Part shown: positions 831 to 6,352 of the stretch, piece after piece
Numbering within the stretch: position 1 is the first letter of the stretch
Layout of the letters: every line of letters begins with the position of its first letter
Assembly: GCA_048939625.1 (NCBI GenBank)
Contig: JBHLPH010000016.1
Coordinates: 1 to 47,001 of the forward strand
From: Promethearchaeota archaeon
GTDB taxonomy: Archaea; Asgardarchaeota; Hermodarchaeia; Hermodarchaeales; Hermodarchaeaceae
Direction: 5' to 3'
DNA length: 47,001 nucleotides
Program-made: the position numbers and the translations under genes
The notes under the pieces: generated by a model
What the model was told of the DNA's origin: nothing
Seen by the model: the letters and a program-made list of their open reading frames with translations, nothing else
The model's database searches: none

Positions 831-1124
831 TCATATTTGTCGAATGTAGTTAAGCCAGGTTTCGGCTCGCATTGCGAATCGTCGCGCTTCTAATTCCTCC
901 ACGTGTTGGGTTAAATTGTTTCCATATTTAGCCCAGAAGTATTCATACCATTCCTGGGCTTCCATGGTAACATGGTGATCAGGACCAAGCATGGCTTCAG
1001 CAAAGGCCACGACCACATCCAAATCTTCAAGAACATATTCGGCGTTAATGCGCAGATTAGCTTTGTTGATAGCGTTCACCAACCGTTCGCGCATTTCGGC
1101 AAAGGAACGCATTGGGTGTGCCAT
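831..1124 (-). CDS. Small helical protein; probable stand-alone Vps28 C-terminal four-helix-bundle paralog
   Basis: Operonic between vps28 and EAP30 (19 and 13 nt gaps). Aligns by eye with the C-terminal ~95 aa of the neighbouring Vps28. Confidence 0.7.
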   Translation of the reverse strand: MAHPMRSFAEMRERLVNAINKANLRINAEYVLEDLDVVVAFAEAMLGPDHHVTMEAQEWYEYFWAKYGNNLTQHVEELEARRFAMRAETWLNYIRQI

Positions 1125-2658: not shown

Positions 2659-3201
2659 TTAGGTTGAACTACTCTTAGTTTTGTGCTTAGTTGTTGAGCT
2701 TCGTTTGGGGGGTTCGTCCTTTACTGCTTGGCGGACAGTGACTAGTATATTGCTTTGAAGTTCACGAAGAAAATTCTCAAACCGTGTTTCAAAGAGCGTA
2801 ATCATTTCTTCAAGGCGCTGAACAGCTTGAGTTAATGTTGGAACGAGTTCTCGTTGGAGCTCTTTTAGATCTGCTGATGCTGATTCAGGTTTTTTCTTCG
2901 CTACCTTGTCTATGGTTTTTTCAAAGGTCTCAAATCGATCGACGAGAACACCAAGTCGTTCAACAGAGGATTCTGAGGCTATAGTGTCATCCGCGACTAG
3001 CTTTTGCAGTGTTTTCACCTCCCGGAGGAGGGCCCGAATGTTAGCTTCCATCTTGAGATTCATCCGTCCCAGGTCTGAGTCGAGTAGGTTCAGACCTTTC
3101 ACTATCCGCTTCAGGGACTCAACGGTAGGGACTAGGCCCTTTGGCGTTTTGATGGCTTCGATTTCAATTGCATATTTTGGCGGATCAGAGGACACGGTCA
3201 C
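2659..3201 (-). CDS. Hypothetical coiled-coil protein in the ESCRT/ubiquitin cluster
   Basis: 180 aa ORF with a short N-terminal beta motif (IEIEAIKTPKGLVP), heptad-rich helices and a basic tail; GTG start. Confidence 0.75.
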   Translation of the reverse strand: MTVSSDPPKYAIEIEAIKTPKGLVPTVESLKRIVKGLNLLDSDLGRMNLKMEANIRALLREVKTLQKLVADDTIASESSVERLGVLVDRFETFEKTIDKVAKKKPESASADLKELQRELVPTLTQAVQRLEEMITLFETRFENFLRELQSNILVTVRQAVKDEPPKRSSTTKHKTKSSST

Positions 3202-3398: not shown

Positions 3399-3650
3399 AT
3401 GACACAATCAGCAGGGCGGTTCATTATCTCATCGGTGAAAGAAATTGGCCAATGGGATTGGACCAAATCCACTGAGATGTGTTGTGTCTGCCGCCTCCCT
3501 ATCAAGACTGGTGAACAGATGGTCTACTGCCCAAATTGTGGCAATCCCGCACATTATCGCCATCTCGCTGAGTGGGTGAAAATGAAGGGAACCTGCCCTA
3601 TCTGTCGGAACCGCATAAGCCTACGAAGGTTGAAACCGGTTAGAAAATAG
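3399..3650 (+). CDS. Small RING-finger protein (E3 ligase-like)
   Basis: CVC-x12-CPNC-x4-H-x2-H-x3-W-x6-CPIC with the conserved RING Trp; directly upstream of ubiquitin. Confidence 0.9.
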   Translation: MTQSAGRFIISSVKEIGQWDWTKSTEMCCVCRLPIKTGEQMVYCPNCGNPAHYRHLAEWVKMKGTCPICRNRISLRRLKPVRK

Positions 3651-3663
3651 TCGGTGGTTAAAA

Positions 3664-3900
3664 ATGCGAATAGAAGTTGTACCAGCGATTGGTGGTAGTG
3701 ACCCCATAGCTCTTGAAGTGGAACCCAATACAACTATTGGGGAGATTCGGAACCGCGTGGCTTCGATGCGTAGGATACCGCCCAACATCGTTATCCTGGC
3801 ATATCGTGGTGCACAGCTGACCGATGAACAGACGATTAAGAGTGTCGGTATCACTCCACATGATAAATTGTACCTCATCACGAGGACCGAGGGCGGCTAA
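3664..3900 (+). CDS. Ubiquitin-like protein ending in Gly-Gly
   Basis: 78 aa beta-grasp pattern (LEVEPNTTIGEIR, IPP, L.Y.G.QL.D..TI..VGI) ending LYLITRTEGG-stop. Confidence 0.95.
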   Translation: MRIEVVPAIGGSDPIALEVEPNTTIGEIRNRVASMRRIPPNIVILAYRGAQLTDEQTIKSVGITPHDKLYLITRTEGG

Positions 3901-4099
3901 GACAAATTAAACCAAACGGTTTCGATCTCAGTCGTCCCTCAGTTTTTTCTCTTCCCTACGTGACAATAAAGACTAGCACCTTCTGCGTTTGCCACAAATG
4001 AATCTATTTTTTATTGCTACCAACCGAAAAGGTATTTACGGGAAATGCATGTGGTAAGGGTAATGGGGACCGGCTTATCTAGGAAGAGGCGCTGTCCAC

Positions 4100-4561
4100 A
4101 TGCTGTCAGAAGAGGACTATTGGGCAAGATTAGCCCTTGAAGCGAAAAACATGGAAACTGAGGAACCGTCGTTCCAACCCGTGCAAGGGGACCTGAGACG
4201 ATGGCAGGGATTCATACTAGGTACAGGTATTTATGATGGGGGCGTTTTTGTCTTACAGATTAATGTTCCACGAGCCTTCCCCTATGAACCTCCACAAGTT
4301 CGATTTATCACCAAAATCTGGCATCCAAATATTTATCGAGGACGAGTGTGTGTCGGAATCTTAGGTAAGGATTGGCTTCCAAGCATGTCTTTAACTGGTG
4401 TAGTAGAAACGCTTCGAAACCTTCTAAATTTCCCTAACCCCGACGATCCTTTAAACCAACGGGCATCTCGTGAAGCAAAAAAAGAACCCGTAAAATTCGA
4501 ACGCACTGCACGGGATTGGGTTCAACGGTTTGCCGGATGGGACCAAATTCAACGTAGGTGA
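4100..4561 (+). CDS. Ubiquitin-conjugating enzyme E2
   Basis: YDGGVF, FPYEPPQVRFITKIWHPNI..GRVCVGIL..W with the catalytic Cys, PNPDDPLN. Confidence 0.95.
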   Translation: MLSEEDYWARLALEAKNMETEEPSFQPVQGDLRRWQGFILGTGIYDGGVFVLQINVPRAFPYEPPQVRFITKIWHPNIYRGRVCVGILGKDWLPSMSLTGVVETLRNLLNFPNPDDPLNQRASREAKKEPVKFERTARDWVQRFAGWDQIQRR

Positions 4562-4569
4562 AACCACCC

Positions 4570-5601
4570 ATGGATGACCAAGTCACTGAGGAACATAAGA
4601 AAATCCCAGTGTACCATGGGACTGAACGTTATGCTCGCCAATTGCTGCTTGAAAATTGGGACCAGGAAAAACTGTCGAAATCCACTGTAGTCGTCGCGGG
4701 GATTGGAGCCCTTGGGACGATTGTAGCTGTCGATTTGGTTCTCACAGGAATTGGAAAAGTTGTGATAATTGATTTTGACACTATCGAACTCTCTAATCTT
4801 AGTCGCCAATACCTCTATTTTGACGACGATGTGGGGAAGCCAAAAGCTGTCGTTGCCGGACAACGTCTCCGCGAAATGAATCCTGATGTGCAAGTGCTAG
4901 CTCTCAATTGTGCCATCCAAGATGTTAGGCATGCAATTTACGAAGAAGCCGATCTCATTATTGATGGTCTTGATACCTTTGAGGCTCGACGTTGGTTAAA
5001 CTCATTATGTGTCCAAAAGAACAAGGTCTTCTTAAGTGGGGGAATGTACGGTTGGTGGGGAAATGTACAACGAGTTGTGCCTTTTGAAACGGCCTGTTTG
5101 GAATGCCAGCCTTTGGTTCCCGCAGAACGCTTACAAAAAGCATGTACACCACCTGGCGAGCGTCGTAAAAAAGAAGAGCCACCTCCCAAATTCCCGTCCC
5201 TTCTAAGCGTGGCAACCATAGTTGCTGGAATCCAATTTCAAGAAGCATTAAAGCATCTGTTGAATGTAGGCACTCCGCTAGATAATTATCTGTTCTATGA
5301 TGGTCTCCATCAGCAGTTCACTATTCTCAAACTAGCACGAAATCCTAACTGCTTCCTTTGTAGTGACCGGTTCCGTCTCAAAGGAGAAATCTATGCTGTG
5401 GGGCGCAAGGAAACTGTCGCTGAATTGAAAAATCGATTGATTATGACTTTTGGTTTACAAGACCCCAAGATTATTCGTCGTGGAAAAGTCCTTGATGACA
5501 ATCAAGTCCTAGGAAAATTACGCCTAAAGGATAAAGAAACTCTTTTCATTATCGATACGGCCTTGGCGCAACCTCTGAAGTTATTGGCTGTTTTTAAATA
5601 A
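4570..5601 (+). CDS. Ubiquitin-activating enzyme E1 (ThiF adenylation domain + C-terminal ubiquitin-fold domain)
   Basis: RYARQ, GIGALG, DFDTIELSNLSRQ, GKPKA, CLEC/CFLC zinc pairs and a catalytic Cys in ACT. ATG 4570 follows AGGTGA (alternative GTG 4558). Confidence 0.93.
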   Translation: MDDQVTEEHKKIPVYHGTERYARQLLLENWDQEKLSKSTVVVAGIGALGTIVAVDLVLTGIGKVVIIDFDTIELSNLSRQYLYFDDDVGKPKAVVAGQRLREMNPDVQVLALNCAIQDVRHAIYEEADLIIDGLDTFEARRWLNSLCVQKNKVFLSGGMYGWWGNVQRVVPFETACLECQPLVPAERLQKACTPPGERRKKEEPPPKFPSLLSVATIVAGIQFQEALKHLLNVGTPLDNYLFYDGLHQQFTILKLARNPNCFLCSDRFRLKGEIYAVGRKETVAELKNRLIMTFGLQDPKIIRRGKVLDDNQVLGKLRLKDKETLFIIDTALAQPLKLLAVFK

Positions 5602-6352
5602 TTGGAATCACAGTTAACCGAACCAAGATTGCCACAATCACCACAAAAAGTGTAACACTCAATGTGATAACAAGAGCGGTTTCAGAGGACATACGGAAGC
5701 GTTCACGAACTCCCAAAGAGAGAAGAACCGCCCCCCACAGCATAGCGATACTCGCCAGAGCATAAACAGCAAGCCAGATAGGATGAATATACAAGAGTGT
5801 TAGTTCTAAAAAGGTAACTGGGGGAAGAAAAAGGAAAAGCAACCCAGCAGAAATCAGATTCGCAAACAGAAAGGGAAGTAATGCATACTGTCCCATCAAG
5901 AAGGTTTCAGAGAGTTGACCTTCGCGACCTGAATAATTGATTATCATCTGGATAATGCCAAAATAAAACAGGTTTAGTAGCATATACAGCAATAAAAGGA
6001 TTGCAAAAACCCCGAAAAACCCGATAAAAAGAAAGGCACCAGCATCTGTGATATGAGAAACCATTGCTACAAACCAAAGAGCGATAACCGCAATGTTGGC
6101 TAGAAAAAGAAGGGCCGGTCCACGATTATCAAGTTCATGAGCAATATCCCAGAACGTAACTGCCGGAAAACGAAAAACGCCCCAAAGGCGTTGACGAAGA
6201 GTCAGCCGTGATTCCCATTGTTTTTCAGGGCGTTTCATGAAAGGTAGAATTCGCTCAAATTGCTCCGTTCGAAATCGGTACCCACATTGAGGACATACAG
6301 CGTCGCCAGCTTCTACGAGAATTAGACATTCCGGGCACCGCAATTTCGACAT
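5594..6352 (-). CDS. Yip1-domain membrane protein with N-terminal zinc ribbon
   Basis: CPEC-x10-CPQC, then the W.VF..P..TF..I Yip1 entry motif and about five hydrophobic helices. Confidence 0.75.
   Translation of the reverse strand: MSKLRCPECLILVEAGDAVCPQCGYRFRTEQFERILPFMKRPEKQWESRLTLRQRLWGVFRFPAVTFWDIAHELDNRGPALLFLANIAVIALWFVAMVSHITDAGAFLFIGFFGVFAILLLLYMLLNLFYFGIIQMIINYSGREGQLSETFLMGQYALLPFLFANLISAGLLFLFLPPVTFLELTLLYIHPIWLAVYALASIAMLWGAVLLSLGVRERFRMSSETALVITLSVTLFVVIVAILVRLTVIPII

Follow-up and report, generated by a model that had tools for sequence, protein, structure and literature searches.

Separately encoded C-terminal domains (CTDs) of the ESCRT-I protein Vps28 have been described in Asgard archaea. 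Makarova et al. (2024, PMC10936438) reported that some Asgard genomes encode the Vps28 CTD separately, beside a full vps28 gene, and the part of their table that covers Heimdallarchaeota AB_125 places cog.004115, annotated as "Vps28 protein, C-terminal region", between the EAP30/vps22 gene and the UEV-Vps23 gene. Elsewhere among the Asgard archaea, Vps28-C occurs within fusion proteins, joined to adaptin, longin, or further modules (PMC10936438). The eukaryotic Vps28 CTD is the element of ESCRT-I that contacts ESCRT-II (PMC10936438). Vps22 of Asgard archaea forms homodimers, and yeast two-hybrid assays detected its interaction with components of ESCRT-I (Hatano 2022, PMC9192718); the interaction screens of that study covered Thor-, Odin-, Loki-, and Heimdall-type proteins and did not include the free CTD (PMC9192718). 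The free CTD is mentioned neither in that study nor in a 2023 preprint on UEV-Vps23, a functional study of it was searched for and not found, and the treatment of cog.004115 by Makarova et al. (2024) consists of one sentence, without phylogeny or function. The existence and cataloguing of separately encoded Asgard Vps28-C genes are already known, and the cog.004115 entry contradicts an earlier note on the DNA analyzed here, which had stated that such a subunit was, to its knowledge, undescribed. The Asgard ESCRT-I/II system is the best available model for the assembly of the eukaryotic ubiquitin-ESCRT pathway, and the gene reported here touches the question of how ESCRT-I hands off to ESCRT-II in Asgard archaea without the eukaryotic Vps36 GLUE/NZF module.

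The ESCRT gene cluster and its small gene

The window, which is the whole stretch of 47,001 nucleotides (nt) analyzed here, derives from contig JBHLPH010000016.1 of a Promethearchaeota archaeon of the Hermodarchaeales and begins at the contig end. Its first genes form a minus-strand ESCRT cluster. The small gene, predicted to encode a free-standing paralogue of the Vps28 CTD, is located at 831 to 1124 (−) and was called as an ORF of 97 amino acids (aa) with an ATG start; the open frame is 101 aa long and has no in-frame extension upstream. The neighbouring full-length vps28 gene (1144 to 1791, −) encodes a protein of 215 aa that matches PF03997 over residues 19 to 206 (E = 9.9e-15) and consists of the N-terminal core/steadiness box and a CTD at approximately residues 118 to 206. 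Directly downstream of the small gene is an ESCRT-II gene of the EAP30/Vps22 family (83 to 817, −; 244 aa; PF04157, E = 1.4e-26), and upstream of vps28 is the ESCRT-I gene UEV-Vps23 (1818 to 2624, −), whose product matches UQ_con (E = 5e-16), UEV (E = 3.1e-4), and Vps23_core (E = 3.5e-4). The spacer between vps28 and the small gene (1125 to 1143, −) is 19 nt long and contains the Shine-Dalgarno-like sequence GAGG, and the spacer between the small gene and vps22 (818 to 830, −) is 13 nt long and contains GGAGGA, which is likewise Shine-Dalgarno-like. In a close relative (L046), the cluster extends further, with genes for Vps25 and Vps4 on the opposite strand.

The first gene of the minus-strand cluster (2659 to 3201, −) encodes a helical/coiled-coil protein of 180 aa with no Pfam match above the cut-off. 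Its homologues, identified by phmmer, occupy an equivalent site ahead of UEV-Vps23 in loci of the Hermod, Baldr, and Wukong types, and it is a candidate for an extra ESCRT-I subunit, possibly a stalk or steadiness-box subunit resembling Vps37/Mvb12. A RING-ubiquitin-E2-E1 set (3399 to 5601, +) is divergent from the ESCRT strand. The ThiF-type E1 (4558 to 5601, +) has a ubiquitin-like domain at its C terminus (residues 279 to 330; PF00240, E = 6.5e-4), and directly after its gene lies that of a 252-aa membrane protein (5594 to 6352, −) that combines a zinc ribbon at the N terminus with a Yip1 domain (PF04893, E = 1.7e-12). Yip1 proteins are eukaryotic membrane-trafficking factors.

The frame at 831 to 1124 (−) is a real, functional gene. 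Public data contain 19 clusters of 97-aa orthologues sharing 69 to 93% identity with its product, and pairwise dN/dS values among the Hermodarchaeia orthologues range from 0.03 to 0.12, with synonymous sites being near-saturated. Distant stand-alone relatives of 94 to 107 aa, with 24 to 42% identity to the window protein, were retrieved from 1.84 billion protein representatives, and none of the 7 entries returned by that search is a full-length Vps28. In a whole-genome profile search, 89 of 400 Asgard genomes were matched, and about 67 of the matches are short stand-alone frames. Public records label the Hermod-type protein "hypothetical protein" and assign no Pfam domain to it. One Hermodarchaeia MAG contains a 98-aa orthologue (L027, 1501 to 1797, +; L061, 4001 to 4297, +) that matches the family over residues 1 to 55 only, and the C-terminal half of this protein looks frameshifted or misassembled.

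Homology to the Vps28 CTD and predicted fold

Comparison by hhalign of a profile of 38 free copies with a profile of 40 Asgard Vps28 proteins gave a probability of 92.5%, an E value of 4.9e-7, and a score of 44.4 over 85 columns, with residues 9 to 96 of the small protein aligned to residues 118 to 206 of the 215 residues of Vps28. The same comparison with the reversed Vps28 profile scored 16.2, and 20 column-shuffled profiles scored no more than 16.8, with a best control E value of 0.049. The controls are far below the real score, which indicates that the match exceeds what chance or helical composition would give. The aligned region of Vps28 is the only one to which the 97 aa correspond, and the N-terminal core/steadiness-box hairpin, which docks into the ESCRT-I headpiece, is absent from the small protein. 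A split vps28 gene was considered and rejected, since the neighbouring Vps28 has a complete CTD.

Hidden Markov models (HMMs) built from either family alone recovered the other. The HMM of the free copies gave matches, colinear throughout, to the final ~90 aa of bona fide Vps28 from many genomes, with E values of 1e-4 to 8e-3 per genome and of 5e-6 to 1e-3 within the ORFs of the fetched loci. Conversely, the HMM of Vps28 matched Baldr-type free copies with E values of 4e-8 to 2e-7 and Hermod-type free copies with E values of 2e-4 to 2e-3. The end-to-end similarity reaches significance only after relatives are added. BLASTP of the small protein against the Vps28 of the window gave an E value of 0.009 with 22% identity over 45 aa, and hhalign with narrow profiles (Neff 1.6) was uninformative, aligning the last helix alone with 3% probability. 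No Pfam family was found for the small ORF at E values up to 1 or for six of its relatives at E values up to 10. The neighbouring vps28 is the sole above-cut-off match to PF03997 genome-wide, a search that misses the small gene, and the genome-wide search with the free-copy family HMM did not reach the CTD of the neighbouring Vps28. Family HMMs searched against all PDB chain sequences gave no Vps28 entry at E values up to 10, and their matches there, such as those to de novo helical bundles and triosephosphate isomerase, were due to chance only. The case for homology to Vps28 is built on profile-profile comparison, on transitive matches, and on the predicted fold.

The four helices of the small protein span residues 4 to 23, 28 to 46, 51 to 67, and 77 to 96. 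An AlphaFold (AF2) model with these four helices, generated from a 27-sequence alignment, had a pLDDT of 89.2 and a pTM of 0.80 and predicts an up-down four-helix bundle of ~95 residues that superposes on the solved Vps28 CTD. Foldseek placed the Xenopus Vps28 CTD (2j9w) at ranks 1 and 2, with an E value of 3.8e-3, a TM score of 0.82, and an rmsd of 2.1 Å over 99 columns, and the yeast Vps28 CTD (2j9v) had a TM score of 0.73. Other folds had TM scores of 0.49 or lower, except for two loose helical matches with TM scores of 0.60 to 0.63. An earlier AF2 model from a narrow alignment (pLDDT 75.8) pointed weakly in the same direction, with a Foldseek E value of 0.12 for 2j9w. HPt and CheA P1 domains were rejected as identities of the small protein, there being no invariant His in the 27-sequence alignment of the family and no Hpt family in the Pfam scans.

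The earlier note had aligned the 97-aa ORF end to end with the CTD of its neighbour, and its four segment pairs, matched by eye, are the pairs found by hhalign with diverse profiles. It had left the significance of the profile match and the fold to be checked; the former is clear from an E value more favourable than those of all controls (at least 0.049), and the latter agrees with its expectation, the top Foldseek structure being a Vps28 CTD. Pfam, hhalign, the AF2 model with Foldseek, and synteny together bear out its central proposal of a free-standing Vps28-CTD homologue in an ESCRT-I/II cluster, beside a complete vps28.

Distribution, origin, and divergence of the free copies

Free copies are present in every sampled genome of the family to which the window belongs (f1, 18 of 18) and of families f4, f5, f6, and f7 (31 of 31), as well as in 9 of the 12 genomes of f12 and in both matched genomes of f33. 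These families range over Hermodarchaeia, Baldrarchaeia, and MAGs labelled Wukongarchaeia or "Hodarchaeota", together with genomes recognized as Heimdall-type by their fusion architecture. The gene order UEV-Vps23, Vps28, free CTD, and Vps22 was observed in every locus with enough flank, with a Vps22 homologue following the small gene in all of these loci, and in two loci (L024 and L041) the small gene overlaps the vps28 stop by a few bases. A survey of the gap between vps28 and vps22 in Asgard genomes, suggested by the earlier note, has turned out in its favour, with the free copy in a fixed order where present. In the Heimdall-type family f7 (L026, L028, L037, L038, L042, and L043), a UEV/E2-like domain (PF00179/UEV), Vps23_core, and a full Vps28 are fused in a protein of ~455 to 489 aa (L026, 1841 to 3238, −), and the free CTD gene is retained just downstream. 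The copies of this family were recovered by the Hermod-type profile with E values of 1e-15 to 1e-22. Vps23-Vps28 fusions of this type have been described for Heimdallarchaeota (Hatano 2022, PMC9192718).

The free copy was not found in Loki-type genomes and most other sampled families, which indicates that it is dispensable for the pathway. In L035, vps28 directly abuts vps22. In the large-genome family f10, which is probably Loki-type, no free copy was found between vps28 and vps22, and the gene there (L031, 1565 to 2905, +) lies on the opposite strand and encodes a protein of 446 aa whose N terminus bears Cys-rich zinc ribbons. Judged by its Cys-rich N terminus and its length, this protein appears to resemble the published Znr_PH_CC_SB architecture. 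Weak matches to the free-CTD profile were also found in two proteins that belong to no Pfam family, at the C terminus of one of 466 aa (L036, 330 to 1730, +; residues 373 to 461, E = 3.8e-4) and at the N terminus of one of 550 aa (L044, 375 to 2027, +), and both may be multidomain proteins with Vps28-C like those reported by Makarova et al. (2024).

A maximum-likelihood tree calculated for 23 free copies and 24 Vps28 CTDs places all the free copies on one side of a branch with support of 100/99, and both subtrees group the genome families alike. The single clan and the matching family order indicate that one old duplication, followed by co-inheritance, produced all free copies, rather than repeated recent duplications. 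A recent tandem duplicate was rejected because the two proteins share ~20% identity and all free copies belong to a single old clan. The small protein had been called a duplicate in the earlier note, which is correct insofar as it is a paralogue of the Vps28 CTD and incorrect if a recent copy is meant, the tree and the low identity marking it as old and diverged. That the small protein is, in identity and origin, an ancient diverged paralogue of the Vps28 CTD is highly probable.

The free copy and the Asgard Vps28 CTD are homologous across the whole domain, but they fall into separate clans, with the longer branches in the free copies. They have a common core, which includes I19/I128, L24/L133, L35/L146, and L83/L193 (free copy/Vps28) and the W-L-N of helix 4. 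However, the free copies do not retain the Vps28-CTD invariants D129, W172, R199, and F204. Only E33 and Y67 are invariant in the 27-sequence alignment of the free copies, and K66, Y30, and E55 are further residues specific to this family. E33 takes the place of the conserved Pro144 of the Asgard Vps28 CTD, and K66 and Y67 form a short extra K-Y segment after helix 3. With the loss of several Vps28-CTD invariants, binding to the partner of Vps28 could have gone altogether.

Proposed role and comparison with known systems

The free CTD, conserved and always encoded between vps28 and vps22, suggests itself as a candidate part of the ESCRT-I/II junction. As an overall explanation, we consider it fairly likely that an ancient Vps28-CTD paralogue acts there as a separate subunit. 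The 3' half of vps28 would have been duplicated once, or the whole gene would have been duplicated and its 5' half then lost, giving a free copy without the N-terminal core, the anchor of Vps28 in ESCRT-I. The small gene would then have been inherited with vps28 and vps22 in a fixed order and co-transcribed with them. For its binding partners and role, we infer that the product would be a separate small subunit at the ESCRT-I/II junction that is made coordinately with its neighbours and recognizes a partner from the same pathway by means of the Vps28-CTD scaffold. The likeliest partner would be the Vps22 homodimer, which in Asgard archaea stands in place of the eukaryotic Vps22/Vps36 pair and could present a second CTD-docking site, and an ESCRT-III subunit may be the alternative. 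Binding would occur via a conserved surface of the small protein itself, with the EY[IV]LE[ED]L motif of helix 2 and K66-Y67 after helix 3. The fixed place of the small gene directly before vps22, its close or overlapping junctions with the neighbouring genes, and strong purifying selection favour a co-produced subunit that docks on a component of the pathway. The mechanism itself, that of a stoichiometric subunit, is proposed tentatively and has a little less than an even chance. Its most specific form, in which the free CTD would be a dedicated stoichiometric subunit of an ESCRT-I/II supercomplex, would pre-date the split of Heimdall/Wukong from Hermod/Baldr, and would fill the second, otherwise empty docking site of the Vps22 homodimer, is speculative and rather unlikely. 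If it were true, the asymmetric eukaryotic Vps22/Vps36, which has one Vps28 contact only, would have arisen later through simplification of an arrangement with two CTDs.

The small protein may instead bind a partner other than Vps22, such as the Vps28 CTD in a bundle-bundle heterodimer, an ESCRT-III protein (Vps20-like), or another factor, and act as an adaptor for one branch of the pathway. The diverged surface is compatible with a new partner, and the yeast Vps28 CTD is reported to contact Vps20 too. The fusions of Vps28-C to adaptin, longin, and other modules in other Asgard archaea (Makarova et al. 2024) and the 466-aa protein of L036 also fit such an adaptor. However, the location directly upstream of vps22 in all lineages points to Vps22 first, and we regard a different partner as unlikely.

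A decoy is an improbable role for the small protein. As a decoy or competitor, a role that the earlier note had suggested beside that of an extra adaptor, the free CTD would occupy the Vps28-docking site on ESCRT-II (Vps22) and limit or time the hand-off. In favour of this role, it shares fold and homology with the domain that contacts ESCRT-II in eukaryotes (Makarova et al. 2024) and, without the N-terminal core, it cannot join ESCRT-I through the headpiece. However, a decoy should keep the binding surface of the original, and the Vps28-CTD invariants are replaced while new invariants are present. Furthermore, the gene has a fixed place in the operon, close to or overlapping both neighbours, which suggests that its product is made in parallel with theirs, an unusual arrangement for an inhibitor, and the copy has been retained since one old duplication. 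Judged from the residues, the divergence would fit a simple decoy somewhat less well than a specialised subunit. Lastly, an unrelated four-helix bundle (e.g., HPt-like) with a convergent resemblance to the Vps28 CTD is very improbable, for although the VIA-align Z scores of CheA P1 domains (11.9 and 11.3) equal that of the Vps28 CTD (11.5), a structural similarity at the level of generic bundles, and the small protein has neither a Pfam match nor a PDB sequence match, the profile-profile match has clean controls, the reciprocal HMM matches are specific to the Vps28 C terminus, Foldseek singles out Vps28, and the small gene always adjoins vps28.

The separate subunit at the ESCRT-I/II junction, which remains our preferred reading, differs from its eukaryotic counterpart in architecture. 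The eukaryotic Vps28 CTD (2j9w, 2j9u/2j9v, and 2g3k; the C-terminal half of PF03997) is tethered to the N-terminal core, whereas the small protein is untethered, and the solved chains share 12 to 17% identity with it and gave no direct HMM match. The NZF finger of Vps36, the partner element in eukaryotes, is a eukaryotic insertion described for yeast (PMC10936438). The Pfam scan of the Vps22 encoded in the window gave the EAP30 domain alone above the cut-off, which suggests that this protein has no NZF finger. Among the Asgard systems, cog.004115 is the same as the small protein in being a Vps28-C-like helical bundle alone, extra to the Vps28-containing gene, and its layout as tabulated for AB_125 is that of the loci described here, a likeness based on size, domain, and gene position. 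For the biochemistry of Asgard ESCRT-I/II, the free CTD is a reasonable candidate, though not a surprising one. The present analysis makes a modest addition to the catalogued family, namely, significance tests, a single old origin, an invariant synteny, and family-specific residues, and it assigns "hypothetical proteins" of Hermodarchaeia to the free Vps28-CTD family, an addition that is likewise modest.
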